From contig CAVQDQ010000004.1 of NCBI GenBank assembly GCA_963711315.1, positions 7,825-71,824 of the forward strand: 64,000 bases of DNA, written 5' to 3'. The translations under genes and the position numbers were made by a program. The notes beneath the pieces are model-generated. The model did not search any database. It was not told where the DNA came from and saw only the letters and a program-made list of their open reading frames with translations. Below, piece by piece: positions 28,815 to 48,825 of this stretch. Origin of the DNA: an uncultured Actinomycetes bacterium (GTDB lineage: Bacteria; Actinomycetota; Thermoleophilia; Gaiellales; Gaiellaceae). Each line of letters opens with the position of its first letter. Within the stretch, counting starts at the first letter, position 1.

Positions 28815-29273
28815 TCATTCACTGTCGGACGCAAGGCACAGCGCGAGCTCGACTGCCTCCTCGGGGGTAGACGCGCGCTCGACTCCCTCGCGCCCGAGGT
28901 CCCAGCCCGGTTCCAGCACGACGACCGGGCGGCCCAGGATGCGCGCGTATGCGATCTCTGCCAGCGTGCCGTAGCCGCCGCCCACCGCAATCACGGCATC
29001 ACCCGACGCGGCCACGGCGAGGTTCCGCGCGTGCCCGATGCCCGTCACGACCACGTGGTCGATCCAGGGATTCGCGGCCCCCCGCGACTCGCCCGGCAGG
29101 ATGCCAACGGTGACGCCGCCCGCCTCCTTCGCACCGCGCGCGGCAGCCGCCATCACCTCATCCAGCCCACCGCAGACCAGCGTCGCCCCACGCTCGGCGA
29201 GCAGCCGGCCCACCTCCGCGGCACGCGCCTCGTGCTCGGCACCACTGCCGATCACTGAGATTTGCAGCGTCAC
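28815..29273 (-). CDS. SLOG/LOG-like Rossmann protein (TIGR00725-type)
   Basis: Reads VTLQISVIGSGAEHEA...LVCGGLDEVMAAAARGAKEAGGVTVGILPG...AVGGGYGTLAEIAYA. The GTG at 29273 directly follows the upstream TAA. Confidence 0.75.
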   Translation of the reverse strand: MTLQISVIGSGAEHEARAAEVGRLLAERGATLVCGGLDEVMAAAARGAKEAGGVTVGILPGESRGAANPWIDHVVVTGIGHARNLAVAASGDAVIAVGGGYGTLAEIAYARILGRPVVVLEPGWDLGREGVERASTPEEAVELALCLASDSE

Positions 29274-30638
29274 TTACGCCGCCCCTACCCGCTGCACGAT
29301 CGCGTCGACGACACGCTCGCCGGCGCGCCCGTCCAGTTCCCCGACGACCTCCCGTGCGACGCGCCGCCGCTCCGCCGAGAGCTCGCCCGGTTGATCGAGG
29401 CAACGTTCAATGGCCGCGGTCACGTCGTCGAACGTCGAAGCCCGATAGAAGGCCGTGGACGACATGAGCTCGCGGTAGTGCACGCCGAGCACGTTCTTCG
29501 CGGCCCAGGTTTCCCCGGGCGGAGCACCCTCGTCGTAGAGGACGCACACCGCCGGCCGGTCGTTGACGAGTGAGTCGAGCAGGATGGTGCCGGCGTTCGA
29601 CACGACGCACGCGCCGTACTGGAGCATCACGGCGAGCGAGCGTATGTCCGCCTCGCCGGCGGGCTGCACGGCGGCCCCCTCCCGCCCCATCGCCGCCGCA
29701 AACCGCTGCTCCCACTTCTTGTCACGAGGGTGCGGGCGAAACAGCAACGAAAACCTCTGCCGTGAGCCGCTCTCCTCCCACCAGCCGACCAGCCGCTCGA
29801 AGAACAGCGGCTCGTACGGCGTGTTCGTCGGCGTGTTTCCCATCACCAGTACGACGGGGCGCGACGGATCCAACCCGTGCCGGCGGCATAACGCCTCGAA
29901 GTCCTCGGGCGGGCGCCGTTCGTGGAAGAAGTCGCTCTGGGGCCAGCCGGTGACGATCGCGCGTGCGGGGTCGACGCCGTGATACCGCTCGAGATCGCTC
30001 CGCATGACGTCGTTCTGAACGATGTAAGCGTCGAGGTGAGACGAGATGACGCCCTTGCCCACGGGGTGGTCCCAGCTCGCAACGTAGCCGACGGCGGGCG
30101 TCCCCAGCCGCCGCGCGGCATTCAGCACGGGCGCCACTGACGGCGTCTGGAGATTGGCCACGACGACGGCGTCGCACTCGTCCCGCATCCGCTTCACCAG
30201 CGCGCTGGGCACGTACCGCCTCTTCGAGAAGTACCACCGCAGCATCCCCTGCTCCACCCATTGCCAGCGCGGCAGCGGATCGGCGTGGTCGAGATCGAGG
30301 AACGGATTGCCGTGCCCGTGTGCCATTCGCTCGACATGGAAGCCGTGCCGGTAGTTGAAGCGAATCGCGAGCGGCCAGAACCCGAAGTGCTGCTCGAGCC
30401 AGGCGTCAGCGCGCCGGGCGACCCTCTCGGAGAACGCGACGTGCTCGGGAAAGACATCCTCGTAGTACTTCACCTGCAGCTCGTCGAGCTCAGCCCAGCG
30501 TGACGCCTGCTTGCGCGGCTCGAGAAAGACGACTTCCAGCCGATCTCCGAGCCGCTCCGAAAGCCCTGCCGTCAGCCCGCACCAGAAAAAGAGCTTGGTG
30601 GTCAGCGGATCGGGGAGGACAAGCCAGACCCGCCGCAT
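29274..30638 (-). CDS. Hypothetical GT-B-like transferase with an HP motif (candidate CMP-sugar or phospho-sugar transferase)
   Basis: MRRVWLVLPDPLTTKLFFW...VLVMGNTPTN...LLFRPHPRD...VVSNAGTILLDSLVNDRPAV... has a two-Rossmann-like layout. The ATG shares 1 nt with the upstream stop (TGATG). The upstream 137 aa of ORF 29274..31049 were not called. Confidence 0.6.
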   Translation of the reverse strand: MRRVWLVLPDPLTTKLFFWCGLTAGLSERLGDRLEVVFLEPRKQASRWAELDELQVKYYEDVFPEHVAFSERVARRADAWLEQHFGFWPLAIRFNYRHGFHVERMAHGHGNPFLDLDHADPLPRWQWVEQGMLRWYFSKRRYVPSALVKRMRDECDAVVVANLQTPSVAPVLNAARRLGTPAVGYVASWDHPVGKGVISSHLDAYIVQNDVMRSDLERYHGVDPARAIVTGWPQSDFFHERRPPEDFEALCRRHGLDPSRPVVLVMGNTPTNTPYEPLFFERLVGWWEESGSRQRFSLLFRPHPRDKKWEQRFAAAMGREGAAVQPAGEADIRSLAVMLQYGACVVSNAGTILLDSLVNDRPAVCVLYDEGAPPGETWAAKNVLGVHYRELMSSTAFYRASTFDDVTAAIERCLDQPGELSAERRRVAREVVGELDGRAGERVVDAIVQRVGAA

Positions 30639-31630
30639 CAGAAGAAGTCGTGGTCGCCGCTGATGATGCGCCAGCGATCGAAGTCGTAGGCGTCGAAGGG
30701 GAAGGCCTTCGACGGATTCGCGAGCGACGTCATGGGATGGCGGCCTTCGAGCGTGAAACCGGTGGCCGTGACGGCCTGCTCGAGCATCGGATCCTTCACC
30801 AGCACGTCGAGCTTCCGGGCGCCCGTGCGGCGCACTCGTTCCACCGCCTCTCCGAGCGCGGACTGTGCAGCCTGTCCGTCGAGAGCAAGGAGCTCGTGGA
30901 CGCGGAAGATGCCCGCGAAGTCGTCGCCCCACCGCGCCGGGTCGCGTTCGCCGAGCAACGCGGCTGCGGTCAGCGACCCGGTCGCGTCCCGCTCGGTGAC
31001 CCACTGGTAGTTCTCGCAGGTCGCGTCGGAGTAACGCCATGACAACCATGCGGCGCTCTTGTCGATGCGTACGAGACCGGGCTGCGCGTGAGCTCGTGAC
31101 GCAAACTCGGCGAGCTCGTCGATCGTCGGTGCGGCTGCGGGCTCAGCGCCCCGGCGCGAGAGTCTCGGCAGGCGCAGGCGCCGCCGCTCGAGGTCGATTC
31201 CCCAGCCGCCCACCTCGCCCAGATACGTGGCGCCGACGTGCTTGGTGAGCTTGATCGACCGCACGTTGGGAAACGTGTACATCAGCTGCATGCGCTCGAG
31301 GGCGAGGTCCCGCCCCTGCTTGGCAAGGGTCAGAAAGAGCCGCGGCCGGTTGCGGTAGTCGGGGTGCGTCACCGCCTCCATGCCCTGAGCGCCGAGCAAG
31401 ACCTCGTCGCCGGCGCGCATGGCCACGGGCCAGTAGACCGCCATCGATGCGCAGACGTCGCCGTCGACCGCGATCAGCGCTACCGAGTCTCCCCACGGAG
31501 TGTCGAAGAGGCGGTGGCGGGTGACGGACTCGGGTCGCGGCCTGCCTTTGACCGCTTCGTAGAGCCTCCCGAGCGCCGGCAAGTCGGCAGGCGTCGGCGG
31601 CCGGATCTGCAATTCGTCAGCCAAGCCCAA
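30638..31630 (-). CDS. GNAT-like acyltransferase, two-domain
   Basis: 330 aa with IRPPTPADLPALGRLYEAV...IAVDGDVCASMAVYW...GMEAVTHPDYRNRPRLFLTLAKQG.... The start is TTG and overlaps the upstream gene's 3' end. Confidence 0.65.
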   Translation of the reverse strand: MGLADELQIRPPTPADLPALGRLYEAVKGRPRPESVTRHRLFDTPWGDSVALIAVDGDVCASMAVYWPVAMRAGDEVLLGAQGMEAVTHPDYRNRPRLFLTLAKQGRDLALERMQLMYTFPNVRSIKLTKHVGATYLGEVGGWGIDLERRRLRLPRLSRRGAEPAAAPTIDELAEFASRAHAQPGLVRIDKSAAWLSWRYSDATCENYQWVTERDATGSLTAAALLGERDPARWGDDFAGIFRVHELLALDGQAAQSALGEAVERVRRTGARKLDVLVKDPMLEQAVTATGFTLEGRHPMTSLANPSKAFPFDAYDFDRWRIISGDHDFF

Positions 31631-32600
31631 GCTCCGCAGCCACGACGCGATACCACTTGCTGTGACTCAGCTGCACGCGGTCAACCAGGGCGGCGTCGGG
31701 CGGAGATCCGGCGATGGCGATCCTAGGTAGCAGCAGCGGATCCATGCCCTCGCGCACCGGGCCGCCGACGTTCATGAAGGCGGAACTGTAGCCCGCCTCA
31801 CGAGCGGCCTCGACGGCGGCGCGGCAGAGGTCGCTCGGATGTCCGTGCGGGTAGGAGAAGTGCCGGCACGGGACGCCGAGGCGATCCTCGATCGCTGACT
31901 TCGAGCCCTCCACCTGGGCGGTGATCTCCCCTGTGCCCTGCCGCTCGTGAAGGACGGCGTGGTCGCGAGTGTGAGACCCGACGGTGACGCCCCGCTCGAC
32001 GAGCGAGCGCAGCTCGTCCCAGCCGAGCAACGCCTCGCTCGCGAACGCTGCATCGACTTCCGTCCAGCGCTCGTCGGGCAGGAGCTCGCGGAGCCTCTGC
32101 AGCACGTCTTCGGCCTCCTGCAGGGGCAACGTCCGGAGCAGCTCCGCCGCCTGTCCGGCCGCGCGCTCACGATCGTCCGCGGTGCGGAGCTTGAACGGCC
32201 GTCTCCGCCCCGGCAACCGTACGCTCGGCTCCTCGGTAAACGCGAGAGCTGCGCGCATGACGTACGTCGGCACACGCGATCCCGAGTCGATAAGGCCCGT
32301 CGGGACGAAAACGGCGTAGGGCAAGCCGTTCAACAGCGGATCGGCGAGCTCGAGCACCGAGCGATAGGCGTCGTCGAACGTGAGCGCGGCGGCGTTCGCC
32401 GGCAGCGACGCTTCGCCACGCACGGCCGCCACGACCTCGTCCAGCGTCACGACCTCGTAGCGCGAGCGGACGAGCTGGACGATGCGCTCGAAGGACTCGA
32501 CATCGACGTGGTTGACCTGGATCTCCGGATGCTCGATCCGCTCGACGACGCCGTGGAAGCTCAGCACCGCGGCGAGCTCTGGCGCGAAGGTCGCGTTCAC
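31617..32600 (-). CDS. Polysaccharide deacetylase (NodB-homology domain)
   Basis: The GTG at 32600 overlaps the transketolase stop (GTGA). Contains ...ALTFDDAYRSV..., ...VGSHTRDHAVL... and ...FSYPHG.... The upstream 262 aa of ORF 31617..33386 were not called. Confidence 0.82.
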   Translation of the reverse strand: MNATFAPELAAVLSFHGVVERIEHPEIQVNHVDVESFERIVQLVRSRYEVVTLDEVVAAVRGEASLPANAAALTFDDAYRSVLELADPLLNGLPYAVFVPTGLIDSGSRVPTYVMRAALAFTEEPSVRLPGRRRPFKLRTADDRERAAGQAAELLRTLPLQEAEDVLQRLRELLPDERWTEVDAAFASEALLGWDELRSLVERGVTVGSHTRDHAVLHERQGTGEITAQVEGSKSAIEDRLGVPCRHFSYPHGHPSDLCRAAVEAAREAGYSSAFMNVGGPVREGMDPLLLPRIAIAGSPPDAALVDRVQLSHSKWYRVVAAELGLG

Positions 32601-34513
32601 GCGCCCGCGAGCGTCCGCGCCTCGGCGATTCGGCCCACCAGCGAGGCAGCGTCGAGTCCGTGCGCCCGCAGCGCTTCGGGCGGAGTGCCGAACGCAGGCC
32701 AGCCGTCGGCGCCGCTCACGGCCACTTCGCGGCCGGGCAGCTCGCGGCGCAGCGCGTCGCCGAGCGCACCGACCGAGGCGTGGTCTTCGACGACTACGAT
32801 CGGGGCCGTCGTCGCTGCGACCTCCTCTAACCACTCGCGGTCGAAGCGGTTGAGCCAGGGCAGGTCGACAACGGCCACGTCGTGCCCGTGCTCCGCGAGC
32901 ACCTCTGCCGCCGTCAGCACCTCGTGCAGCATCACGGGCCCGTAGGCGAAGACGAGGGCGTCCTCGCCATCCCGGAGCACTGTTCCGCGCCCAGGCGCCA
33001 GCCGGTAGTCGGCGGGAAGCTCGATGCGTCGCGGGGAAGGCCCTATGGCGAGCCGAATGGCGACGTTGCCTTCCGCCTCCTCCACCGCCCACGCCACGAC
33101 CGCCTTCGTCTCGTCTGCATTCGCAGGCTGCACGATCGTCATGTTCGGCAGCGCTGCCAGCAGCGACACGTCGCGCAGGCTCTGATGCGACATGCCCGGC
33201 CCGGCCGGGATCAGCCCGGCGTAGTGCAGCGCATAGATCACCTTCGAGCCTTCGCTCGCGTTGTTGTAGATCTGCTCGTTCGCGCGTGACGCGAGGAAGC
33301 TCGCGAACGAGTTGACCACGGGCACGAACCCGTGACGCGCCAGCCCGCCGGCTACCGACACCATGTCCTGCTCGGCGATGCCGCACTCGAGGAAGCGGTC
33401 GGGGTAGGCCTCCTCGAAGGCGCGCACCCGGCAGTCGGATGCAAGGTCGGCGTCGAGCACGACGAGCGCCGGATTCCGCGCGGCCAGCTCGACGAGGGCC
33501 TCGCCGTAGGCCTCGACGACGTACTCGCGGGTGACCGTGACGCGTTTTCCTGCGCCACTCTCGGGCTCCGCCTCGAGCGCCGGTGCGGGCAGCTCGTCCT
33601 CCAACGGGGGCACAGGCTCGAGCTGCACGGGCCCGATTCGGGCCAGCAGCTCGTCGCGTGCCCGCTCAAAGCTCTGATCGTCGGGAGCGCCAGCGTGCCA
33701 GCGGTACGTGCCGCCCCCCACGCGCAGGGCAGCCGGATGCTCCATGAACGAGACGCCGCGGCCTTTGATCGTCCGGGCGACGATGGCCTGCGGGCGGTCG
33801 TCAATCGTGCTCAGCTCGCCGAACACGCGCCGCAGCTCGTCGTAGTCGTGGCCGTCGCACGAGGAGACGTGCCAACCGAACGCCGCGAGCTTCGCCTCGA
33901 GGTCGCCGAGCGCGAGGATCTCCTCCGTCGGCTTGTCCGACTGGAGCTCGTTCCGATCGACGACGACCGTCAAGCCGGCGAGGCGGTCGTGAGCCGCGCC
34001 TTGCAGCGCCTCGAAGTTCTGGCCCTCCTGCAGCTCGCCGTCGCCGACCATCACCACCACTCGCCCGCCCCTGCCCAGCTGCCGTTTTGCCCACGCGATT
34101 CCGCGCCCCTTGGAGATGCCCATGCCGAGCGAGCCGGAGTTGGCCTCGATGCCGGGCGCGCGCACGTTCGGGTGGCCGTCCAGCCCGTCCGCCCGGCGCA
34201 GACGCAGCAGCTTTTCGGTCGGCACCACGCCAAGCGAGTGGAGGACGGCGTACAGCCCGGGCACGTCGTGACCCTTCGATGAGAAGTACACGTCGCGGTC
34301 GGCGTGCTCGAAGCCGAGCCGCGTGACATTCAGCTGCTCGTAGAGCAGGAAGACCACGATGTCCATCGCGCTGAAGCTCGAGCCGAGGTGGCCGGAGCCC
34401 GCACGCTTGACGGCGGTCAGGGCGTTGAGCCGGCACATGTCGGCGACCACGGGGAGCCCCGCCTCGCGCGCGCGGGCGAACTCCGACCGCGGGATGAGGC
34501 TCAGCTCGCTCAC
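32597..34513 (-). CDS. Transketolase-family protein with N- and C-terminal halves fused (638 aa)
   Basis: Contains SGHLGSSFSAMDIV, GSLGMGISKG and VMVGDGELQEGQ (the ThDP GDG motif). The pyrimidine-binding half has ...ECGIAEQDMV.... A C-terminal domain is present. The ORF is intact. Confidence 0.9.
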   Translation of the reverse strand: MSELSLIPRSEFARAREAGLPVVADMCRLNALTAVKRAGSGHLGSSFSAMDIVVFLLYEQLNVTRLGFEHADRDVYFSSKGHDVPGLYAVLHSLGVVPTEKLLRLRRADGLDGHPNVRAPGIEANSGSLGMGISKGRGIAWAKRQLGRGGRVVVMVGDGELQEGQNFEALQGAAHDRLAGLTVVVDRNELQSDKPTEEILALGDLEAKLAAFGWHVSSCDGHDYDELRRVFGELSTIDDRPQAIVARTIKGRGVSFMEHPAALRVGGGTYRWHAGAPDDQSFERARDELLARIGPVQLEPVPPLEDELPAPALEAEPESGAGKRVTVTREYVVEAYGEALVELAARNPALVVLDADLASDCRVRAFEEAYPDRFLECGIAEQDMVSVAGGLARHGFVPVVNSFASFLASRANEQIYNNASEGSKVIYALHYAGLIPAGPGMSHQSLRDVSLLAALPNMTIVQPANADETKAVVAWAVEEAEGNVAIRLAIGPSPRRIELPADYRLAPGRGTVLRDGEDALVFAYGPVMLHEVLTAAEVLAEHGHDVAVVDLPWLNRFDREWLEEVAATTAPIVVVEDHASVGALGDALRRELPGREVAVSGADGWPAFGTPPEALRAHGLDAASLVGRIAEARTLAGA

Positions 34514-35304
34514 GGGGTTTCGCGGCGGTGCGCGGCAACTGCGGGAGCGAGCCCCGTCGCCTCGGCCAGCTCATCGGTCTTCTCACAGATCAGCAGCACC
34601 TGCTCCGACTCCGGGCGGTAGTCCGTAAACCTCCGGACCTTTCGCCAGCCGGTCCACGCGAGCTCCGTCCGCATGGCTGCCACCGTCGGCACAGCCTTCG
34701 CCTTGCCCGTCGACGCCTGCCAATTAAGGCGGACGATGGCGTCGCTCCTGTCGTCGACGGTGGACTCGAGCAGCATCGAGCCGCCCAGCCGCGTCACGCG
34801 GTTCAGCGTCGACAGCAGTTCGAGGTGATGCGCGGAGTGGTAGAGCACGCCGAGGAAGAAGACGAGGTCGAACGGCTCCAGCTCGAGCAGCTCCTTTGCA
34901 GCGCGCAGGTCCCCGTAGACGAAGCGGTGCGGACTACGCAGCTCACCTACCCAGCGCTCGTGCAGCTCGCCGTCCGCCGCAAAGTCAGAGAAGACGAGCT
35001 CGGACGGCCGGAGCTCCCGGTCGATCCAGAGCGAGTGCACGCCGTACTTCGGCCCCACCTCGAGCACGCGGGCGCCGCGAAAGCGCTCGACGTCGATCAC
35101 GGTCGGCAGTGCCGCAGGAACGAGCGTCAGATCGGGCACGTCCCCCCACGCGGTCGACGGCCGCTTGTCGGCGATCGGCCGGGAGTCGAGCACCTCCTCC
35201 GCCGCCTCGTCCAGGCGATAGCTGGCGTGCGCGTCCGGGTCGTACACCTGAAGCCCTGACCGGACGGCTGCCGACCACGCGGCCCTGCGCAGGAGCTTCC
35301 GCAC
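34510..35304 (-). CDS. Class I SAM-dependent methyltransferase
   Basis: Contains VLEVGPKYG (motif I-like) ...DLVFFLGVLYH...GGSMLLE. The GTG at 35304 lies 1 nt after the upstream stop. Confidence 0.75.
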   Translation of the reverse strand: MRKLLRRAAWSAAVRSGLQVYDPDAHASYRLDEAAEEVLDSRPIADKRPSTAWGDVPDLTLVPAALPTVIDVERFRGARVLEVGPKYGVHSLWIDRELRPSELVFSDFAADGELHERWVGELRSPHRFVYGDLRAAKELLELEPFDLVFFLGVLYHSAHHLELLSTLNRVTRLGGSMLLESTVDDRSDAIVRLNWQASTGKAKAVPTVAAMRTELAWTGWRKVRRFTDYRPESEQVLLICEKTDELAEATGLAPAVAAHRRETP

Positions 35305-35305
35305 G

Positions 35306-36478
35306 TCAGCCCGCGGACGGCCAGGGATGGGCGCGCAGCACGTCCTCGTCCACCTCGGCGCCCCAGCCCGGGCCGGCTGGGACGGTCAGCACGCCGCCGG
35401 TGATGTCCGGCACGGACGTCAACTCGTCCTTCCACGGCACGTCGTCGACGTCGACCTCGAGGATCCGCATGTTGGGAATGGCCGCGCACCACTGGGCCGA
35501 GATGTACGTCGCCAGGTGGCTGTAGTAGTTGTGCGGCGCGCAGTTGACCTCGTGGGTCTCGGCGAGGTCGGCGATCTTCTTCGACTGCGCGAAGCCGTTC
35601 CAGATCACGTCGACGGAGGCGACGTCGACCGCGCCGGCTTCGAAGAATGGCCGGAACGCGCGCGCGCCGTAGAGGTTCTCGCCGGAGCAGATCGGGATCG
35701 ACGTCGACCGGCGCACGAACGCGAGGGCCTCGGGGTCGAAGCAGTCGATCTCGAGCCAGGCGAGGTCATACGCGGCGAGCGCAGCCGCGGTGCGCCTCGC
35801 GCCCTCCGTCGTGAGGTTGAAGTTCAGATCGACTATCGGCTCAGCCTTGCCCTCCGTGCCGGCGGCGAACGCCTCCAGCAGCCTGCCGAGCGCTGCCTCC
35901 ACCTCGGGTGAGGAGTTCCGCTCCAGACCTGGGCCGTGGAACCCTCGGTGCAGCACCTGCGGCTCGTCGCCCGGCACGACGAGGTTCGTCTTGAAGGCGG
36001 GAAAGCCGCGCTCGACCACCTCGCGGCCGAGCGCCGTGACGTCTTCGTAGGAGGCGAGCTTCGGCGTTCCCGTCACCTCCCACGCGCGCGCACGCGTGGT
36101 GCCGCAGTGCGACCAGTAGGTAGGCACCTCCGTGCGCAGCGGGCCTCCGAAGAGCTCGTAGACCGCGACGCCGTGTGATTTCGCCGAGAGGTCGAGCAGC
36201 GCGTTCTCGACGGCGGCGATCGCCTTCGCCACGACGCCGCCGGGGCTCTGCCGGGTCGCGCGGTAGAGATCCCAGTAGACGGCCTCCCATGCGCGCGGGT
36301 CGCGGCCGACGACGAGCGGCGACAGGTCCTCGACGATCCCGGCGAGGCCGCGCGGCGAGCCGTGCGAATCGGTCACCTCGCTCCAGCCGACGAGCCCGTC
36401 GTCCGTGGTCGCCTTGAGGAAGATCCACGGCCGCCAGCCGGCGTCGCAGAACAGCGTTTCGAGGGCTGTGACCTTCAC
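35306..36478 (-). CDS. Enolase-superfamily enzyme (mandelate racemase / muconate lactonizing family, acid-sugar dehydratase-like)
   Basis: 390 aa with MKVTALETLFCDAGWRPWIFLKATTDDGLVGWSE...AVENALLDLSAK...DLNFN...WLEIDCFDP...PICSGEN...APHN.... The start forms a GTGA overlap. Confidence 0.85.
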   Translation of the reverse strand: MKVTALETLFCDAGWRPWIFLKATTDDGLVGWSEVTDSHGSPRGLAGIVEDLSPLVVGRDPRAWEAVYWDLYRATRQSPGGVVAKAIAAVENALLDLSAKSHGVAVYELFGGPLRTEVPTYWSHCGTTRARAWEVTGTPKLASYEDVTALGREVVERGFPAFKTNLVVPGDEPQVLHRGFHGPGLERNSSPEVEAALGRLLEAFAAGTEGKAEPIVDLNFNLTTEGARRTAAALAAYDLAWLEIDCFDPEALAFVRRSTSIPICSGENLYGARAFRPFFEAGAVDVASVDVIWNGFAQSKKIADLAETHEVNCAPHNYYSHLATYISAQWCAAIPNMRILEVDVDDVPWKDELTSVPDITGGVLTVPAGPGWGAEVDEDVLRAHPWPSAG

Positions 36479-37158
36479 GAGCCCTCGGCGAGCCGGAACA
36501 CGACCCTCGCGACGGGCGTTCCCTGGTCGTTCGTGGCGCTCCGCGCAGGCTGCTCGTCGAGCCAGAGCTCGTCAGCGGCGACCGGCGTGAGCACTGCCTG
36601 CAGGTCGGCGAGGCTGTGGAACGCGATCCGGTCGGCGTCGCTCGAGCCGTCGCCGAGCGGCACTTCCACCCCGACGATTGCGCCGGGTCGGCCGACGCGC
36701 TCGATCTCGCGCAGCACCTTCCCGGCGTCGAACGAGTGCTCCAGCGAATGGGACGCGTAGACGGCGTCGAAGACAGCGTCGCCGAAGCTCATGTCGTGCA
36801 TGTCCATGACGAGGATGTCCGGGTGCGGTGAGACGAGATCGATCCCGACCACCCGGCCGACGCCTGCGGCACGGAAGAGGTCGAGCTCGACTGTGTTCCG
36901 GCAGCCGACGCAGAGCACCGACGACGCGCGCGACAGGTCTCCGAGCTCGACGACCCTGCGGACGAGCTGACGTGCGCCAGCTCCCGGGTCGTTCTCGCGC
37001 TTCGACAGCGTACGCCGCTGCTGCACCTCGAGATACTCGCGGTAGTCGGTCGGCTTGCCCCTGCCGAGCCGCCTCAGACCGGGCCGGTGACGGAGATCGG
37101 TGACAGAGCCCGCCGTCGCCCGAAGACGTGTCCGGATTCCCAGTCTCGCCACCTTCAT
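36475..37158 (-). CDS. Class I SAM-dependent methyltransferase (Methyltransf_11-like)
   Basis: Contains VLCVGCRNTVE...DMSFGDAVFDAVYASHSLEH...PGAIVGVEV. The start forms an ATGA overlap. Confidence 0.8.
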   Translation of the reverse strand: MKVARLGIRTRLRATAGSVTDLRHRPGLRRLGRGKPTDYREYLEVQQRRTLSKRENDPGAGARQLVRRVVELGDLSRASSVLCVGCRNTVELDLFRAAGVGRVVGIDLVSPHPDILVMDMHDMSFGDAVFDAVYASHSLEHSFDAGKVLREIERVGRPGAIVGVEVPLGDGSSDADRIAFHSLADLQAVLTPVAADELWLDEQPARSATNDQGTPVARVVFRLAEGS

Positions 37159-37910
37159 GGGCGGTCAGGATACGGATAGGGCGGGCGATCGATCTTCGTG
37201 AGCAAGGCGGCACCCGAGGCCACGAGCGCCTCTGCGCGCTCCCAGTCCACCTCGTCGTCGACGTTGAAGCCCTCCAGGCCTTCCGTCAGGAACGGCGCGA
37301 GCACCCGGCCCTCGCGCGTGCCGGTCTCGGTGACGACGCGCGTCCACGCGATCTCGAGCGCGCTGTTCTGGTGATAGACGGGCGGCAGCGCCTGGTACTG
37401 GCCCGCGTGCCACGCCACCTCGAGATGGGACTGGTCGAGCAGAGGCGTCATGGTGCGGCCGTCCTCGGCGAGCTCCCACATCTTCCCGGGGTGCTGCTTG
37501 ACCAGCTCGACGGCGCGGATGGAGTCCGCTTCAGGAGTGGCGAGCAGCTGCTCGAGGCCGCGCTGCACGACGTCGGGGCCGCGGAAAGGATTCGTCGCCC
37601 GAACGATGGCGAAGAGGTCGTAGCTCTCCGGCAGCCGCTCGAGCGTGTACGCGATCCACTCGATGTCCGGCGAGGTGGACGTTGCGAATTCCGCCGGGCG
37701 CAGGAAGGGGACGTCGGCGCCGTACCAGCGCGCGACCTCCGCGATCTCCTCGGAGTCGGTGGAGACGAGCACGCGCTCGAACACGCCCGCCTGCTGCGCG
37801 GTCGCGATCGCGTATCCGAGCAGCGGATGGCCTGCGAGCGGCCGGATGTTCTTGTTCGCCACGCGCTCGGAGCCGGAGCGCGCGCCGATGAGGGCGATCA
37901 CGCTGGGCAT
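37155..37910 (-). CDS. Acylneuraminate / ulosonic-acid cytidylyltransferase family (CTP_transf_3, NeuA/KdsB-like)
   Basis: Reads MPSVIALIGARSGSERVANKNIRPLAGHPLLGYAI...STDSEEIA...PFLRPAEFA...VRATNPF.... It overlaps the upstream gene by 13 nt. Confidence 0.85.
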   Translation of the reverse strand: MPSVIALIGARSGSERVANKNIRPLAGHPLLGYAIATAQQAGVFERVLVSTDSEEIAEVARWYGADVPFLRPAEFATSTSPDIEWIAYTLERLPESYDLFAIVRATNPFRGPDVVQRGLEQLLATPEADSIRAVELVKQHPGKMWELAEDGRTMTPLLDQSHLEVAWHAGQYQALPPVYHQNSALEIAWTRVVTETGTREGRVLAPFLTEGLEGFNVDDEVDWERAEALVASGAALLTKIDRPPYPYPDRP

Positions 37911-38729
37911 TGTGCAAGGGCCTCTTCGAGGGTAGGTGTGGGAACGCCGAGTCGGCGGCCCGCGCGGACGACCGCGCCGCCGATCGCGTCGAGCTCCGAG
38001 GGCCGCCCGGCGGAGACGTCGCGTTCCGTTGACGACGTGGCCCAGTCCGGCAAGGACTCGATGATCGCCCATTGCTCGTCGAACGTCGTCCGGGCGCCGT
38101 CCGCTGCGGCGACCGCGCACGCTTCCTCGATTGCCAGGCGCAGCCGCTGGCCGGTCCGCAGCTCGCCGATCGTCTCACCTGCCACCGACGTCAGCACGGC
38201 GATCGGACCCTGGCGGGCGAGCTTCTCCCACAGCACGTCCTTCTCGTTTCGCCACGTCCGTGTGGCGATGCCCGCGCGTTCGAGTTGCTCCGGGGCCTCG
38301 TCGGTGGCGACGTTCACGAGCCCTGGAGTCTGCTGAACGATGCGGGTGGGCGATTCCCGATACCCCTCGAAATGACCGATCGTCGCCGCGACGACGCTTC
38401 GAAACCTGTCGCGCAGCACAGCCATGTGCTCGATGCCGTTCAGCAGGGGGAGAACGAGCCCGGGCTCGGCCCGGATGCGCGCGATGCCGTCTTCCAGACC
38501 GTACGCCTTCACCGTGACGAGCAAGAGGTCGACGGGCTCCTCCAGCCGCTCCGTGACCTGGAGCTGCTCGGTGTGCTCGCCGTCGTCCGTCACGAGCGTC
38601 AGGCCTTCGGCGGCAATCGCCGCCGCGGTCTCCGGCCGCGCCACGCAGACGACGCGCTCGCCGGCAAGCGCCATGCGGACGCCGAGCGCACCCCCGACCG
38701 CCCCCGGACCCGAGGACCGCGACGCTCAT
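37898..38729 (-). pseudogene. Ketopantoate-reductase-family (ApbA/PanE) oxidoreductase, one homopolymer frameshift
   Basis: From the ATG at 38729, MSVAVLGSG is followed by a G5 run (plus-strand C5 at 38701-38705). With G4 the text reads GSGAVGGALGVRMALAGERVVCV..., which is continuous with ORF 37898..38674. Confidence 0.85.
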
Positions 38730-40154
38730 ATCTTGGCCGGATCGCTGATGAGGTTCACGTACTTCCACTCCGAGTACACGTCGAGCGCCTCCACACCGGG
38801 CTCGCGCCAGCCGGTGCCCGATTGCTTCACGCCGCCGAAGCCCATGTGCGGCTCCGAGCCATGCGTCCCGCCGTTCACGACGACGACGCCAGCCTCCGCC
38901 TTCTCGGCAAACCGCATCGCTCGGTGCAGGCTCGCCGTGTGAACGGCGCACGTGAGGCCGTACGGCGAGTCGTTGACGACGGTCAGCGAGTCCGCCAGGT
39001 CATGGACGCGATAGAGGATCGTCACGGGGCCGAACAGCTCGGTGCAAGAGAGCTCGGCGTCGGCAGCAACGTCTTCCAGGATCGTCGGCGCAAGCCACCA
39101 ACCGTCACGCTCGAGACGCTCGCCGCCGCAAAGCACTCTGGCGCCCGCCTCGCGTGCCCGCGCGAGGGCATCGAGGATTCGGCCGAGGCTCGCCTCGCTG
39201 ATCACCGGGCCCGTGTCCGCGAACTCCTGGGCGGCTTCCACAAAGCGGCTGCGGAACTCGTCGTACACGGCGTCGAAGATGACGATTCTCGAGGCGGCCG
39301 CACACCGCTGGCCGGCGTTCGAGAACGACGATTGCACCGCCCAGCGGACGGCGTTGTCCAGATCCGCGTCGTCGCAGACGACCAGTGCGTTCTTGCCGCC
39401 CAGCTCCAGGCAGACCTTCGCCAGCCGCCGGCCGGCCGCCTCCGCGATCCAACGCCCCGTCGCCGCCGAGCCCGTGAAGCTGACGAGATCGACCTGCGGA
39501 TGCTCGACCAGGGCGGCACCAGCCTCGGCGCCGAGCCCCTGCACGACGTTGAGGACGCCCGCCGGCACACCGACCTCGTGGCAGACACGCGCGAAGAGTT
39601 GTGCCGAGAGCGGCGTCTCCTCGGAGGGTTTCAGCACGGTGCCGTTGCCGCAGAAGATCGCCGGGAACACCTTCCAGGCGACGTTCGGAAGCGGTGTGTT
39701 GAAGGAGATCAGCAGGCCCGCAACGCCCACGGGCTGCCGGACGGCCATCACCGTGCGGTGGGGCATGCTCGCGGTCGTCGTCCGTCCGTAGTAGCGGCGG
39801 CCCTCGCCCGCCACGAAGAGCCCCAGCTCGATCGCCGCGTCGGTCTCACCCAGGGCGAGCGCCTCTGCCTTTCCAGTCTCCTCGACGACGACCTCCGAGA
39901 GCTCCTCGCGCCGTTCCCGCAGCGCCAGCGAGATCTCGCGGACGAGATCGCCGCGCTCTACCGCCGTCCGCTCGGCCCAGGGCTCCTGTGCCACCCGCGC
40001 AGCCTGCACCGCAGCGTCGACGTCGGCCGCCCCGGACCGCGCAACGCGACACAGCGGCGCGCCGTCCGACGGCCGCAGCTTCTCGAGCCACTCGCCCCGA
40101 GCTCGCCGGCACCGCCTCGCCCGCGATGAGGTTGGGCACGTCGGCGACAGCCAC
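38726..40154 (-). pseudogene. NAD(P)+-dependent aldehyde dehydrogenase, one homopolymer frameshift near the N-terminus
   Basis: The GTG at 40154 gives VAVADVPNLIAGEAVPASSG, which stops matching at the G4 run (plus-strand CCCC at 40095-40098). It then continues as EWLEKLRPSDGAP...FTGS...ELGGKN...SNAGQRCAA.... An AAGG lies upstream of the GTG. Confidence 0.88.
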
Positions 40155-40164
40155 GGGGCCAACC

Positions 40165-40632
40165 TTAGGCGCTCGCTTGATCGGGCGACGGCCGCAGCAC
40201 GAGCGTCTCATTCGGTGCGTGCGCAAGCATCCAGGCGACGTCCTTGCCCGAGAAGCCGGGATGTCCCGGAGCGAGCGCGGGCACGAGGATGCGATCGAAG
40301 GTCTCCACCTCCCACAGTCTCCCGAGTGCATCGATCGGCGTCCGCCCTCGCTCTATGCGGGCATCGACCGGGACGCCGGCGCGCGCAGCAGCGGTCTCGA
40401 CTGCTTCCAGCAGCGGCAGCGCTTCCTCGGCCTGCCGTGCGAGCGCGGCTTCGACGTCGAACTCGAGCGGCACCACGACGAGAAAGGCGGCGACGAGGAT
40501 CGCTTCCTCCGCCCGTGCGATGCGAATCGCCGCCTGCAGCACTGCCGGATCGAGCGCGCCGTCCGCGAAGGGCACTAGCAGCCGCGGCTGGCCCTCGCGC
40601 CGTTCGGCCGTCTTTCGTCGCCGGAGCCTCAC
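40165..40632 (-). CDS. Universal stress protein (Usp) family
   Basis: 155 aa with LLVPFADGALDPAVLQAAIRIARAEEAILVAAFLVVVP.... It forms a GTGA overlap with the KdpD-N gene. Its stop lies 10 nt before the ALDH start. Confidence 0.7.
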   Translation of the reverse strand: MRLRRRKTAERREGQPRLLVPFADGALDPAVLQAAIRIARAEEAILVAAFLVVVPLEFDVEAALARQAEEALPLLEAVETAAARAGVPVDARIERGRTPIDALGRLWEVETFDRILVPALAPGHPGFSGKDVAWMLAHAPNETLVLRPSPDQASA

Positions 40633-41717
40633 GGCGGTCGCTCCTCGCGCAGCGCGCGGTCGGCGATGACGCGGATGTCGATCCCGGGCAGCTCGCGGAC
40701 CATCCGGGACAACAGCGACCCGCGGACGATCTCAACGCGGCGGCGCTCGTCGGGCGTGCCGACGAAGACGTACGTCGACCCGCGCTCGGCGGCCACCCGT
40801 CCGACCGTCGCCACGAGGTCATCGCCCTCCTCCTCGAGGAAATGGACGCCGAGGATGGAGGCGAGCCGCCGCAGGGCGGCCAGCTGCGTTGCCTCCTCGG
40901 CCGTGAGCTGCTGGCCGGGGTGGCGCATCCACATGGCGTCGATATCGCTTCCCAGCCGCTGCGCCGACCGCCAGGCGCGGCGCAGGATGCGCTGGGACTT
41001 CGGCTGCGGTTCGATGAGTGCGAGCACCCGCTCCGTGACCGCCTGCTGGCTGAGCGGGTCGAGCACCTTCGGTGAGCGACGGGCCTCGACGTCCTCGGCC
41101 ACCTCTCGCAGCGCAAGCTCACGCAGCGCGGAAAGGTTCTCCTGGGTGAAGAAGTTCAGCAACGCCCGCTCGGCCTGGCCGCCGGGGTAGACCTTGCCCG
41201 CCCGCAAGCGCTCCTGCAGCGCCTCGGGCGAGAGATCGACCAACACGACCTCGTCGGCGTCGTCCAGCACGCGGTCGGGGAAGGTCTCGCGGACGCGAAC
41301 TTCGGTCAGCTCCGCGACTGCGTCGTTGAGGCTCTCCAGGTGCTGGACGTTCACCGTCGAGATGACGTCGATACCGGCGGCGAGGATCTCGTCGATGTCC
41401 TGGTAGCGCTTCTCGTTGCGCGAGCCGGGGGCGTTCGTATGCGCAAGCTCGTCGACGAGTGCGAGCTCGGGCGCCCGGCGTATGACGGCGTCCACATCCA
41501 TCTCCTCGAGCCCGAGCGAGCCGTGCTCGATGGGTCGGCGCGGCACGGTCTCGAGCCCCTCGGCGAGGGCGGCCGTCTCAGGACGATCGTGCGGCTCGAG
41601 GTAGCCGATCACGACGTCTCGGCCTTCCGCCTTTGCCTGGCGACCCTCCTGGAGCATCCGGTAGGTCTTGCCGACGCCGGCCGCCATCCCGAGGAGGATC
41701 CGGTACCGGCCTCGCAT
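40629..41717 (-). CDS. Stand-alone KdpD N-terminal sensor domain (KdpD-N plus Usp-like), without TM or kinase parts
   Basis: Reads MRGRYRILLGMAAGVGKTYRMLQEG...VIGYLEPHDRPET...ALVDELAHTN...RYQDIDEILAAGIDVISTVNVQHLES.... It ends after the Usp-like region, at 362 aa. Confidence 0.85.
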   Translation of the reverse strand: MRGRYRILLGMAAGVGKTYRMLQEGRQAKAEGRDVVIGYLEPHDRPETAALAEGLETVPRRPIEHGSLGLEEMDVDAVIRRAPELALVDELAHTNAPGSRNEKRYQDIDEILAAGIDVISTVNVQHLESLNDAVAELTEVRVRETFPDRVLDDADEVVLVDLSPEALQERLRAGKVYPGGQAERALLNFFTQENLSALRELALREVAEDVEARRSPKVLDPLSQQAVTERVLALIEPQPKSQRILRRAWRSAQRLGSDIDAMWMRHPGQQLTAEEATQLAALRRLASILGVHFLEEEGDDLVATVGRVAAERGSTYVFVGTPDERRRVEIVRGSLLSRMVRELPGIDIRVIADRALREERPP

Positions 41718-41726
41718 GGCGGGAGG

Positions 41727-43786
41727 TTATGCCCCGAAGACGTTGTGGATGAGCAGGTCGATCAGCTTGATGCCGACGAACGGCAGGATCACGCCGCCCA
41801 GCCCGTAGATGAGGAGGTTGCGCCGCAGCAGCGCCGTCGCCCCGATCGCGCGGTACTTCACGCCGCGCAGAGCGAGCGGTACGAGCGCGGGGATGACGAG
41901 CGCGTTGAAGATGATCGCGGAGATGATCGCGCTGTAGGGGCTGCCGAGGTTCATGACGTTCAGCTGGCCGAGAGGGCCTTCCTCGCCCGGAACAGTGGAG
42001 TAGGTGAAGGCGAACATCGCCGGCAGGATGGCGAAGTACTTTGCGACATCGTTCGCGATCGAGAACGTCGTCAGCGAGCCGCGGGTGATGAGGAGCTGCT
42101 TCCCGACCTCGACGATCTCGATGAGCTTCGTCGGGTTGGAGTCGAGGTCGACCATGTTGCCGGCCTCCTTGGCAGCGGTCGTCCCGGTGTTCATCGCCAC
42201 GCCGACGTCGGACTGGGCCAGCGCAGGCGCGTCGTTCGTCCCGTCACCCGTCATCGCGACCATGCGGCCGCGAGCCTGCTCCTCCCGGATGAGCTCGAGC
42301 TTCCGCTCGGGCGTCGCCTCGGCGAGGAAGTCGTCGACGCCCGACTCCTGCGCGATCACGGCGGCGGTGACCGGGTTGTCGCCCGTGATCATCACCGTGC
42401 GGATGCCCATCTTCCGCAGCTCGTCGAAGCGCTCGTTCATGCCGCCCTTGACGATGTCCTTGAGGTGGACGACGCCGAGCGCGAAGTTGTCCTTGGCGAC
42501 GACGAGCGGCGTGCCTCCCTGCTCGGCCACCTGCTGCACGATCCCGTCGAGCTCGGCGGGGGCGCTCCCTCCCTGCTCGCGATGAACTCCTTGACGGCGT
42601 CGGCGGCGCCCTTGCGGATCATCGTCCCGTTCATGTTGAGGCCGCTCATGCGCGTCGTCGCGGAGAACGCCACGAACTCGTGCTGCTCGCCGAGCTCGCG
42701 CTCGCGCAGCCCGAACTGCTCTTTGGCGAGCACGACGATCGAGCGGCCTTCGGGAGTCTCGTCGGCGAGTGAGGCGAGCTGTGCCACCTCTGCCAGCTCG
42801 AGCGTCTCGACACCTGAGAGCGGCAAGAACTCGGCTGCCTGACGGTTGCCGAGCGTGATCGTGCCGGTCTTGTCGAGCAGCAGGACGTCGACGTCGCCCG
42901 AGGCCTCTACCGCGCGGCCGGACATCGCGAGCACGTTGCGCTGCACGAGGCGGTCCATGCCGGCGATGCCGATCGCCGAGAGCAGCGCGCCGATCGTCGT
43001 CGGGATGAGGGCCACGAGCAGCGCGATGAGGACGGTCTGGGACAGATGCGTGCCGGCGTAGTCCGCGAACGGCGCCAGCGTGACCGTCGCGACGACGAAC
43101 GTGATGGTCAGGCCGGCGAGCAGGATGTTGAGCGCGATCTCGTTCGGCGTCTTGCGGCGCTCGGCGCCCTCGACGAGGGCGATCATGCGGTCGAGGAACG
43201 AGCGGCCCGGCTCCTGCGTGACCTCGATGACGAGCCGGTCCGAGAGCAGCCGTGTGCCGCCGGTCACGGCCGAGCGGTCGCCGCCTGCCTCGCGGATCAC
43301 CGGCGCCGACTCGCCCGTGATCGCGGACTCGTCGACCGAGCCCACGCCCTCGATGATCTCGCCGTCGGCGGGGATGACCTGGCCGGCTTCGACCACGACG
43401 ATGTCGCCGCGCTGGAGATCGGGTGCGGCAACCTCCTCCAGCCCGCCGGTGTCGGTTCGCCGGAAGGCCATGGTCGTCGTGCGCGTGGCGCGCAGCGCGT
43501 TGGCCTGCGCCTTGCCACGGCCTTCGGCGACCGCCTCCGCGAAGTTCGCGAACAGCACCGTCAGCCATAGCCAGAGCGCGATCGTGCCGGTGAACCAGAG
43601 CGGCTCCGATTCGTCCGACGAGAAGAGGTCGCGGAAGAAGATCACCGTCGTGATCACGCTGCCCAGCTCGACGATGAAGATCACCGGGTTGCGGAAGAGC
43701 GTCCGCGGGTCGAGCTTCACGAACGAGTCGCCAATCGCGTGGAAGACGATCGCGCGGGTGAAGATGCCGCCGCTGCGCGTCGTCAT
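41727..43786 (-). pseudogene. kdpB: K+-transporting P-type ATPase subunit B, one apparent frameshift
   Basis: Starts [39 protein letters not shown]. Contains ...[13 protein letters not shown].... The break is near 42560-42590. It then continues as ...[11 protein letters not shown]...[13 protein letters not shown].... The ATG overlaps the kdpC stop (ATGA). Confidence 0.9.
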
Positions 43787-44368
43787 GCCGTCTCCTCGTC
43801 CAGCGCCAGGTTGAGCTCGAGCACGTTCACGCCCGGCTCGCCGAAGATGCCCAGCCAGCGCCCGTCTGTGTTCTCGTCGATCAGCCCCTCGACGCGGTCC
43901 AGGGAGAGCCCACGGACTTCCGCCACGCGCGCCGTCTGGAGTTGGGCGTTGGCCGGGGAGATGTGCGGATCGATGCCCGACCCAGAGGTCGTCACGGCGT
44001 CGACGGGGATGTCGCCGATCCGCAGACCCGGGTTGTAGGGGCGCTCCAGCTTGAGAATCGCGAGCACGCGTTGACGTACGGCCTTCGCGAGGTCGGGGTT
44101 CGTCGGGCCGAGGTTGGCGAACGTCGTCGCGGCGGCGTTGTACTCGGGTGCCGTCGCCGAGGGCCGCGGGTGGAAGTACTCGCGGCTTTGTGAACGCCTG
44201 CGCGGCGAGGCGGGAGCCGACGATCTTGCCGTCGCGCTCGATGAGGCTGCCGTCCGCGCGGCCGGGCGCGATGAGCTGCGCGAGCCCGGTGAACGCGAGG
44301 GGATAGGCGAGGCCGAAGACGAGCGTCAGCACGACGACGGCGATGACGGAGCGGCCGAGCGTGCGCAT
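43783..44368 (-). pseudogene. kdpC: K+-transporting ATPase subunit C, one apparent frameshift
   Basis: [24 protein letters not shown]...[23 protein letters not shown] continues after a break near 44186 as [31 protein letters not shown]...[16 protein letters not shown]...[11 protein letters not shown]. It is located between kdpA and kdpB. Confidence 0.88.
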
Positions 44369-46072: not shown

Positions 46073-46158
46073 AGCTTCTCGCCTCGGAACAGCACGTAGA
46101 CGAGATACGCGACCACGAGTACCGCGACGACGAGGCCGAAGATGTCGCCCGCGGCCAT
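46069..46158 (-). CDS. kdpF: K+-transporting ATPase subunit F (29 aa)
   Basis: Reads MAAGDIFGLVVAVLVVAYLVYVLFRGEKL. It is a single hydrophobic helix. Its stop overlaps the kdpA GTG (GTGA). Its ATG overlaps the stop of the preceding small ORF. Confidence 0.75.
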   Translation of the reverse strand: MAAGDIFGLVVAVLVVAYLVYVLFRGEKL

Positions 46159-46241
46159 CAGACGCGGCTCAACACGTAGATGACCGCGAACGAGAACGCG
46201 AAGCACGCGAGCGCGATGACGATGCCGAGCAACTCGACCAT
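46158..46241 (-). CDS. Small hydrophobic ORF (27 aa) immediately upstream of kdpF
   Basis: Reads MVELLGIVIALACFAFSFAVIYVLSRV. It is chained by TGATG overlaps to both neighbours. No family was recognised. Confidence 0.4.
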   Translation of the reverse strand: MVELLGIVIALACFAFSFAVIYVLSRV

Positions 46242-46537: not shown

Positions 46538-46699
46538 GAGCTCGGCCGCGCGCCAGGAAAGCCGCAGGGACGGGCACCGGCGAACGAAGCAGCTCCCGGT
46601 CCGCGACCCGTCGCGCGCGCGCGCAGCTGGCGCCGCTGGCGAAACGATTGCACGACCTGCGTCAAGATATTCGAGGCTACGGACGGCCGCCTGAGCGCC

Positions 46700-48815: not shown

Positions 48816-48825
48816 GCATGAGGAG

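Follow-up and report, generated by a model that had tools for sequence, protein, structure and literature searches.

We examined a block of eleven minus-strand genes (28815-40154) in a 64,000-nucleotide stretch of Gaiellaceae DNA, called the window below and comprising the whole sequence analysed, together with its surroundings there and in related genomes. Gene calls in the window (G+C ~70%) were chosen by third-position GC, and the families of the cluster proteins were assigned by Pfam and NCBIfam profile searches. All eleven open reading frames (ORFs) described in an earlier sequence-only reading were recovered, with a third-position GC of 0.84-0.93, and the families it had named were found. 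Upstream of the block, on the same strand and behind an insertion, lie a NeuB-type synthase, a phosphatase and a short-chain dehydrogenase. On balance, we regard the eleven genes as the distal, larger part of a cell-envelope glycan locus of ~14 genes, and it seems somewhat more probable than its opposite that this locus makes and transfers a remodelled 3-deoxy-2-ulosonic acid activated with cytidine monophosphate (CMP). The features, 5' to 3' on the minus strand, are as follows (L001 is the locus of a close relative described below):

50104..51186, minus: NeuB-family phosphoenolpyruvate (PEP)-condensing ulosonic-acid synthase (93.5% identity to L001 NeuB; PF03102 plus SAF)
49611..50117, minus: YrbI/KdsC-type HAD phosphatase, ulosonate-phosphate phosphatase type (KdsC 102 bits, Kdn-9-P phosphatase 97.7 bits)
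48826..49614, minus: short-chain dehydrogenase (SDR; 90% identity to L001 SDR)
40146..48827: inserted kdp block, not part of the pathway (Pfam and NCBIfam kdp matches; blastn against L001)
38726..40154, minus: aldehyde dehydrogenase (ALDH; PF00171, E 1e-144)
37898..38729, minus: 2-ketoacid reductase of the ketopantoate reductase (ApbA) family (KPR; ApbA and ApbA_C; TIGR00745 153.6 bits, cutoff 141)
37155..37910, minus: NeuA/PseF-type CMP-ulosonic-acid synthetase, the cytidylyltransferase (CT; CTP_transf_3, PF02348 74 bits, gathering score 22.6)
36475..37158, minus: S-adenosylmethionine (SAM) methyltransferase 1 (MT1; Methyltransf_11), accessory
35306..36478, minus: enolase-superfamily (MR subgroup) acid-sugar dehydratase (MR_MLE; MR_MLE_N and MR_MLE_C)
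34510..35304, minus: SAM methyltransferase 2 (MT2; Methyltransf_9/23)
32597..34513, minus: atypical fused transketolase-like thiamine diphosphate (ThDP) enzyme of 638 aa (TK; three TK domains)
31617..32600, minus: NodB-type deacetylase (Polysacc_deac_1; TFDD and HTRDH (HxxxH) motifs), accessory
30638..31630, minus: 330-aa protein with a weak N-terminal GNAT signal (Acetyltransf_9 23 bits, gathering score 25), accessory
29274..30638, minus: TagB/TagF-like GT-B transferase (Glyphos_transf E 4.5e-9, 36.2 bits, gathering score 22.1)
28815..29273, minus: SLOG (LDcluster4/TIGR00725) protein (PF18306 132 bits; TIGR00725 115 bits, cutoff 107), accessory

The tight coupling seen in the sequence-only reading was confirmed. 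ATGA overlaps join ALDH to KPR and CT to MT1, GTGA overlaps join MT1 to MR_MLE, MT2 to TK and TK to NodB, TGATG joins the GNAT-like and TagF-like genes, and TAAGTG joins the latter to SLOG. The other junctions are a 1-nt gap (MR_MLE/MT2), the largest in the block, and overlaps of 13 nt (KPR/CT) and 14 nt (NodB/GNAT-like, where the TTG start is uncertain). The cluster and its surroundings yielded no sigma-70-like promoter, and the six terminator-like sites detected there were no excess over the 4.1 expected from shuffles. Position 40154 is not the upstream boundary of the unit, as a same-strand ORF ends 11 nt upstream of the ALDH start.

Two genes of the block carry +1 frameshifts. The ALDH frame is open from the GTG at 40154 only after deletion of one G in the G4 run 40095-40098, and the KPR frame from the ATG at 38729 only after deletion of one G in the G5 run 38701-38705. 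Both repaired N-termini agree with the orthologues in L001 and L002 (that of KPR, MSVAVLGSGAVGGALG, matches L002). We consider homopolymer errors of the assembly the most likely cause, because the neighbouring kdp genes are also in fragments; real or programmed frameshifts are less likely.

The sequence-only reading had proposed a PEP-independent route, in which TK, ALDH and MR_MLE build a 2-keto-3-deoxy acid that CT activates. MR_MLE dehydratases do make such acids, and there is no NeuB inside 28815-40154. A NeuB gene is nevertheless present in the window, ~9 kb upstream of the block: tblastn with the L001 NeuB, HAD and SDR proteins placed all three at 48826-51186 on the minus strand, with 90-94% identity. 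Using blastn, L001 1-4877 aligned to window 53706-48828 and L001 4885-6284 to 40145-38739. The 8.7-kb kdp block falls exactly at the SDR/ALDH junction relative to L001 (SDR stop/ALDH start), and since it is the one block that breaks colinearity, 40146-48827 is an insertion between SDR and ALDH. NeuB is thus not absent from the pathway but separated from the block by this insertion only, and its presence in the window, together with its contiguity with the cluster in relatives, means that the pathway has a PEP-dependent condensing enzyme. Further, MR_MLE is missing from six loci with NeuB and TK, five of which have a cytidylyltransferase nearby, and the step from TK through an aldose to ALDH is chemically weak, as the product of TK is a ketose and not an aldose that ALDH could oxidise. 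We therefore hold a PEP-independent route to be very improbable.

The inserted block contains KdpD-N/Usp, KdpC, KdpB, KdpA, KdpE and histidine-kinase pieces. Only the C-terminal 309 aa of KdpA are left, the KdpC N-terminus is fused in frame to KdpB and the kinase is split at 47740, which suggests indel errors or decay. In the relative L002, kdp genes also adjoin ALDH, in the opposite orientation.

In the profile searches the window NeuB scored 288 bits with NCBIfam NeuB_NnaB (cutoff 400) and 222 bits with PseI, both sub-cutoff, and its best PDB matches were SpsE, NmNeuB and PseI. The phosphatase scores for KdsC and Kdn-9-P phosphatase were likewise under their equivalog cutoffs; its gene overlaps the NeuB stop, as does that of the 168-aa HAD protein in L001. 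The SDR had generic matches only, with 'gluconate 5-dehydrogenase' at the top (150 bits).

We then read the neighbourhoods of five Gaiellales loci (L001-L005) and of loci from other phyla, which were collected by an MR_MLE locus search and a second TK search. The closest TK homologues belong to Gaiellaceae metagenome-assembled genomes (MAGs), including L001 on a 3.1-Mb contig (88% identity). In L001, the NeuB, HAD and SDR genes precede the cluster genes in the same orientation, their stops and starts overlapping. NeuB and SDR run on into ALDH without a break in L001, L003 and L005. Outside the Gaiellaceae, NeuB and SDR flank the same TK subfamily in eight further loci. Altogether the same ordered module was present in 13 loci: the window, L001-L003 and L005 (Gaiellaceae), L027 (Desulfobacteraceae), L087 (Anaerolineae), L091 (Acidoferrales) and the unclassified MAGs L085, L086 and L088-L090. 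Identity to the window proteins, where measured, was 59-67% for NeuB, 54-76% for ALDH and 57-71% for TK. The SDR gene follows NeuB, directly or behind the phosphatase, in 11 out of 11 loci whose sequence reaches NeuB, and the phosphatase gene is present in the window, L001, L086, L087, L089, L090 and L091.

The order of genes is NeuB-SDR-ALDH-KPR-CT-MR_MLE-MT2-TK-TagF-like in L003 and L005, with a gap of ~2.5 kb between MR_MLE and MT2 in L005 and a reverse-strand methyltransferase between TK and the TagF-like gene in L003. It is NeuB-phosphatase-SDR-ALDH-MR_MLE-KPR-CT-TK in L086, NeuB-SDR-ALDH-TK-MR_MLE followed by a 6-phosphogluconate dehydrogenase-like reductase in L027, NeuB-phosphatase-SDR-ALDH-CT-TK in L089, L090 and L091 (the last with TK-CT), NeuB-SDR-ALDH-TK in L085 and L088, and NeuB-phosphatase-SDR-CT-X-TK in L087. 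The gene content is nested: only SDR and TK accompany NeuB in L087, ALDH is added in L085 and L088-L091, and MR_MLE and a reductase are added in the window, L001-L003, L005, L027 and L086. A conserved cross-phylum core of NeuB-(phosphatase)-SDR-ALDH-CT-TK is strongly supported by these data. MR_MLE and the 2-ketoacid-type reductase are an add-on to this core, while NodB, GNAT-like, SLOG, MT1 and MT2 are lineage-specific and variable. MT2 is kept in most Gaiellaceae versions (present in L001, L003 and L005, absent from L002). MT1 is not in the operon of L001 and L005, and a 58%-identical copy in L003 lies on the other strand, immediately beyond the TagF-like gene. The co-occurrence of TK and MR_MLE, suggested as a check in the sequence-only reading, was seen in L001-L003, L005, L027 and L086 and not in the six TK loci that do not have the dehydratase.

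Frequent neighbours of the module are Wzx or Wzm/Wzt exporters and family 4 glycosyltransferase (GT4) genes; AsnB-type amidotransferases adjoin it in L027, L088, L089 and L090, and a KpsC/KpsS-type Capsule_synth gene in L089. These neighbours identify the module as part of a surface-glycan system. We found no NeuC, PseB/C/H/G or LegB/C/H/G in the conserved module of the window, L001-L003, L005, L027 and L086-L090, so this is not a pseudaminic acid (Pse), legionaminic acid (Leg) or N-acetylneuraminic acid (Neu5Ac) locus. It combines a NeuB synthase with a CTP_transf_3 CMP-sugar synthetase, as a NeuB/NeuA-type locus does, and carries a YrbI/KdsC-family phosphatase beside the synthase, as in the branch of the Kdn-9-P/Kdo-8-P type. 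The top NCBIfam match of CT was PseF (122 bits, cutoff 206), whereas the KdsB models gave at most 41 bits, sub-cutoff; among PDB entries, NeuA (9ftb) and the mouse and N. meningitidis CMP-Neu5Ac synthetases scored far above KdsB. By its sequence, CT is predicted to be of the NeuA/PseF type and not of the KdsB type.

Two side observations concern the module loci. Genes of the DHDPS/DapA family stand directly after TK in L088 (10976-11899) and, in L085 (21785-21953), behind a second cytidylyltransferase ~10 kb downstream of TK; this family includes N-acetylneuraminate lyase and 5-dehydro-4-deoxyglucarate dehydratase and acts on 2-keto-3-deoxy acids. In L086, the genes directly upstream of the NeuB module (1-3034) encode an AMP-binding enzyme, an SDR/epimerase, a PP-binding carrier and a class I/II aminotransferase, which may form a lipid or acyl anchor pathway tied to the sugar.

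The TK protein scored 404 bits with NCBIfam NF004559 (cutoff 488) and 241 bits with human TK, and is nearest to the human/short type and to split transketolases. We aligned it and 239 members of its subfamily (240 sequences in total) against human TK. Residues H37, S40, H77, H110, D155, N185, K244, H258, E366 and F392 were kept across the 240 sequences, S40 and N185 each varying in one or two of them, and human Q428 was replaced by the bacterial-type His. In all or nearly all of the 240 sequences, R318 was a gap or V, S345 was D, H416 was Y, R474 was G or I and D424 was P. In the human enzyme, R318, S345, H416 and R474 form the sugar-phosphate site and D424 is the Asp that contacts the acceptor hydroxyl. 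The enzyme thus has the domains and the ThDP-binding and catalytic residues of a canonical transketolase (EC 2.2.1.1) without its sugar-phosphate site, and is predicted to be a catalytically competent ketol-transfer enzyme that has no sugar-phosphate pocket. The loss of the phosphate-binding residues is consistent with TK acting after the phosphatase, on a dephosphorylated ulosonic acid. Just beyond the cluster are genes for ThiD, a hydroxymethylpyrimidine phosphate kinase, and a ThiL-like AIRS protein (window 24041-25627, L001 18276-19860, L002 17842-19445), which are separate in L001 and L002 and form one 528-aa ORF, fused or frameshift-joined, in the window; the presence of thiamine genes near a ThDP-dependent enzyme may be a coincidence.

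The top NCBIfam match of ALDH was 2,5-dioxovalerate dehydrogenase (367 bits, cutoff 750), and the protein resembles alpha-ketoglutarate-semialdehyde dehydrogenase. MR_MLE has both barrel domains, the three carboxylate metal ligands and the His-Asp dyad of the MR subgroup: K163, D217, E243, E267, D285 and H316 were invariant in 27 homologues and D290 was kept in at least 90%. It falls in no isofunctional family with an assigned substrate (the best equivalog was galactonate dehydratase, 140 bits with a cutoff of 311). The closest PDB entries were 2oo6/3sn0/3sn1/3sn4 (E 2e-102), and the one paper found by literature search assigned no function to 2oo6 (Burkholderia). For the locus search, the broad 27-sequence alignment proved too divergent, and a narrower one worked. 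In 78 of the 80 MR_MLE loci retrieved, from many phyla and at ~50% identity, no other cluster gene was nearby, so the context of the wider MR_MLE family says nothing on the pathway. The representative set also held apparent MR_MLE 'fusions', which turned out to be a transposase read-through or extended N-termini and were discarded as uninformative.

An SDR, an MR_MLE dehydratase and an ALDH like alpha-ketoglutarate-semialdehyde dehydrogenase are all parts of catabolic acid-sugar operons of the Weimberg or glucarate type, which could merely stand beside glycan genes. We rejected this explanation as extremely improbable: translational coupling ties the genes to those for a cytidylyltransferase, methyltransferases and a transferase, they co-occur with NeuB and CT across phyla, and there is no transporter, regulator or second dehydratase. 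These families and their logic (aldehyde to acid, alpha,beta-dehydration, 2-keto acid chemistry) are indeed shared with the Weimberg and glucarate/galactarate pathways, but here the context is biosynthetic, a KPR-type reductase takes the place of the second dehydratase, and the set is coupled to CMP activation and glycosyl transfer. Of the proposals made from the sequence alone, the one upheld is that the cluster is dedicated to making a CMP-activated sugar of the ulosonic type, probably a modified one.

In all Gaiellales loci, the gene for the TagB/TagF-like protein comes after TK: immediately in L004 and L005, behind the reverse-strand methyltransferase in L003, and with the NodB and GNAT-like genes in between in the window, L001 and L002. 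The Glyphos_transf (PF04464) match covers only the C-terminal half of the protein (profile positions 132-366). An AlphaFold2 (AF2) model had a pLDDT of 89 and a GT-B fold, and Foldseek matched it to UDP-GlcNAc 2-epimerases, TagF (3l7k), MshA and CapG (TM 0.5-0.64). The motifs SWDH (188-191), NTPTN (268-272) and RPHP (301-304) were invariant in 37 sequences, except for T269 (at least 90%), and with the GT-B model the invariant RPHP bears out the earlier call of an HP-motif GT-B-like transferase. A role as NeuC-like hydrolysing epimerase was rejected, since the profile match is to Glyphos_transf and not to Epimerase_2. No TagD-like ORF was found in the 64-kb window. We also rejected a CDP-alditol teichoic-acid locus, given the absence of TagD from the window and a sole cytidylyltransferase of the NeuA type in the locus. 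The TagF/TagB CDP-glycerol glycerophosphotransferases share with the window protein the Pfam match, the PT and HP motifs and the Foldseek match 3l7k, but differ in that here only the C-terminal half matches, no TagD/TarIJ-type gene is in the window and the partner CT is of the CMP-ulosonate type. Knockout has demonstrated the role of the Pse/Leg transferases of Tannerella forsythia (Tanf_01245/BFO_1060), which are TagB-like GT-B enzymes carrying an HP motif (PMC5420450). They share the fold, the TagB/TagF signal, the motif and a neighbouring CMP-ulosonic-acid pathway; in contrast to them, the window protein has a DEG tripeptide C-terminal to HP, and its match to the BFO_1060 family is faint (23 bits, cutoff 200). 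We consider the TagB/TagF-like protein likely to be a CMP-ulosonic-acid transferase or polymerase.

NodB is absent from L003, L005 and all non-Gaiellaceae loci. For the 330-aa protein, the GNAT-like signal noted in the sequence-only reading was there, but below threshold; NCBIfam gave no match, phmmer and a three-sequence profile found no PDB match, and a single-sequence AF2 model had a pLDDT of 35 and was unusable. These two genes bear on an explanation in which the locus does two jobs. In one, NeuB, the phosphatase and CT supply unmodified CMP-Kdn, as happens for the teichulosonic acids of actinomycetes; in the other, SDR, ALDH, MR_MLE, KPR and TK make a small hydroxy-acid substituent (e.g. 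of the glycerate or deoxy-tetronate type) that the GNAT-like protein attaches after deacetylation by NodB. In its favour, TK has the NodB and GNAT-like genes as neighbours in the window, L001 and L002, and ALDH, MR_MLE and KPR are families typically met in the metabolism of small acid sugars. The GNAT assignment is sub-threshold, however, the conserved module has no CoA ligase or carrier protein, and SDR and TK stay with NeuB and CT in the loci from which NodB and the GNAT-like gene are absent; we regard this explanation as unlikely. The SLOG gene is present in L001 and absent from L002, L003 and L005. A DEAD-box helicase gene with an MrfA Zn-binding domain (MZB) converges on it from the plus strand (26408-28708) and has the same position in L001 and L002.

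In the remodelling pathway that we favour, NeuB would condense PEP with a sugar phosphate to an ulosonate phosphate, and the KdsC/Kdn-9-P-type phosphatase would free the ulosonic acid, two steps that are strongly supported. Acting on the dephosphorylated sugar, the SDR may then oxidise the side chain at its penultimate carbon and so produce a ketol, from which TK, having no phosphate pocket, could cut off the terminal C2 unit and leave an aldehyde; ALDH would turn this aldehyde into a second carboxylate, yielding a 3-deoxy-2-ulosaric acid like Dha (3-deoxy-lyxo-heptulosaric acid). In the Gaiellaceae, L086 and L027, the MR_MLE dehydratase would further eliminate the hydroxyl in the beta position to this second carboxylate, which would leave a 2-keto group for the KPR-type reductase to reduce. 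Strong support again exists for the last two predicted steps, activation of the final sugar with CMP by the NeuA-type CT and its transfer to the envelope glycan by the TagB/TagF-like GT-B enzyme. The methyltransferases, NodB, GNAT-like and SLOG proteins probably serve lineage-specific tailoring or housekeeping.

The nested gene content fits a linear order of SDR, TK, ALDH, dehydratase and reductase, an exact sequence of steps that we propose tentatively and with clearly less than even confidence. An additional carboxyl group, amidated in some lineages, would agree with the AsnB neighbours, the Gaiellaceae carrying methyltransferases instead, and the KpsC/KpsS-type Capsule_synth neighbour fits ulosonic-acid transfer. 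That the module is a bacterial route to CMP-3-deoxy-2-ulosaric (Dha-type) acids, in which TK shortens a Kdn- or Kdo-like side chain by two carbons, is a possibility that we rate as rather unlikely.

Alternatively, the SDR could oxidise the terminal CH2OH to an aldehyde to which TK adds a C2 ketol, giving a C10/C11 ulosonic acid that is tailored and CMP-activated. Such addition is the canonical synthetic direction of a transketolase and the catalytic residues of TK are intact, but the ketol product would offer no substrate to ALDH, which is almost always co-present, or to the dehydratase and the reductase, both of which require a carboxylate. The sugars of Magnetospirillum are of the C10 diamino type, and the module has no aminotransferase. 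We find chain extension quite unlikely. It is even more doubtful that the SDR, TK and ALDH steps precede NeuB and provide it with an unusual aldose or aldehyde-acid for PEP condensation, for example a uronic semialdehyde from a 5-keto-aldonate that would lead to a heptulosaric acid directly. The product class would be the same as in the remodelling pathway, cleavage of a 5-keto-aldonate by TK would give a C4 aldehyde-acid and, with PEP, a C7 ulosaric acid, and the top (weak) SDR match is gluconate 5-dehydrogenase. On the other hand, the phosphatase implies a phosphorylated NeuB substrate while TK has no phosphate site, ALDH would destroy the aldehyde that NeuB needs, and L087 keeps SDR and TK although it has no ALDH.

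Several points weigh against the remodelling pathway itself. We know of no precedent for cleavage of an ulosonic-acid side chain by a transketolase, and the only grounds for the order of SDR, TK, ALDH, MR_MLE and KPR are the chemistry of their families and the nesting of gene content. None of NeuB, the phosphatase and CT reaches an NCBIfam equivalog cutoff, and the starting sugar may accordingly be Kdn-like, Kdo-like or another. Foldseek does not part TagF from other GT-B folds and leaves the donor type undecided, and many phyla have MR_MLE homologues, at ~50% identity, that show no linkage to the module. Finally, if the frameshifts of ALDH and KPR were real, the pathway would be broken in this genome.

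Among characterised systems, the locus works like a Kdn-type CMP-ulosonic-acid pathway with a TagB-like transferase. The CMP-Kdn pathway of the Bacteroides thetaiotaomicron type and the Kdn teichulosonic acids of actinomycetes have the same NeuB synthase, YrbI-type phosphatase and NeuA-type CT in one operon, no UDP-sugar amination genes and, in the latter, an actinobacterial host with a polymer-type transferase. Here, unlike in those systems, there are three to five extra conserved enzymes (SDR, ALDH, TK, with or without MR_MLE and the reductase), and NeuB, the phosphatase and CT score below the curated cutoffs. Pentose-phosphate and split transketolases have the same three-domain architecture with all ThDP-binding residues and catalytic histidines, but the present enzyme differs from the pentose-phosphate type in its replaced phosphate site and D424, its sub-cutoff NCBIfam scores and its constant location in NeuB glycan loci. 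For the SDR, further side-chain oxidoreductases to compare are the Kdo8N enzymes KdnB and KdnA. SDRs of the same ~260-aa type, encoded with a cytidylyltransferase, are found in EpaA/EpaB (Pse to 8ePse) and AciE and act on the C8/terminal carbon of an already completed ulosonic acid, EpaB and AciE at C8 of nonulosonic acids (PMC12053666). While EpaA/EpaB, AciE and KdnB/KdnA re-reduce or transaminate the oxidised carbon, the SDR partners here are TK and ALDH, which implies C-C cleavage or extension and then oxidation to an acid. As the sequence-only reading had stated, no characterised cluster of such composition was found, and neither was a description of the NeuB-SDR-ALDH-transketolase module in the literature searched.

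Upstream of NeuB, window 51215-63909 holds more envelope-glycan genes and forms a larger glycan region:

from the 51215 region, divergent from NeuB: GT87/PMT-like GT-C, also in L001
55607-56128: Wzy_C fragment
60288-61028: family 2 glycosyltransferase (GT2)
61259-62236: LPG_synthase_TM protein
62233-63909: DegT aminotransferase fusion of 558 aa, 11 kb from the module

At the other end, on the minus strand, a zinc-ribbon and adenylate/guanylate cyclase ORF (22575-23561) adjoins an AAA_16/TPR ORF (20395-22578). In L002 (19520-21929) the two parts form one protein of >1100 aa, and the split in the window is possibly another indel break.

Among the key sugars of surfaces are the ulosonic acids (Kdo, sialic, pseudaminic and legionaminic acids), of which new CMP-activated members with unassigned pathways are still emerging by mass spectrometry; a 2026 preprint describes unusual CMP-activated ulosonic acids of this kind in other bacteria. 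The activated form of Dha is not known for plant rhamnogalacturonan-II and prasinophyte walls, nor is its origin in plants (PMC3355719). The recurrent and highly conserved enzyme set found here points to a hitherto undescribed way in which bacteria abundant in soils and sediments, among them Gaiellaceae, Desulfobacterota, Chloroflexota and Acidobacteriota, remodel the carbon skeleton of an ulosonic acid. Should an ulosaric acid be the product, the module would offer a route to Dha-type sugars that can be put to the test, and it would add a new type of reaction and a new role for transketolase, a ThDP enzyme; a Dha-type product would make it the first biosynthetic route to that sugar class.

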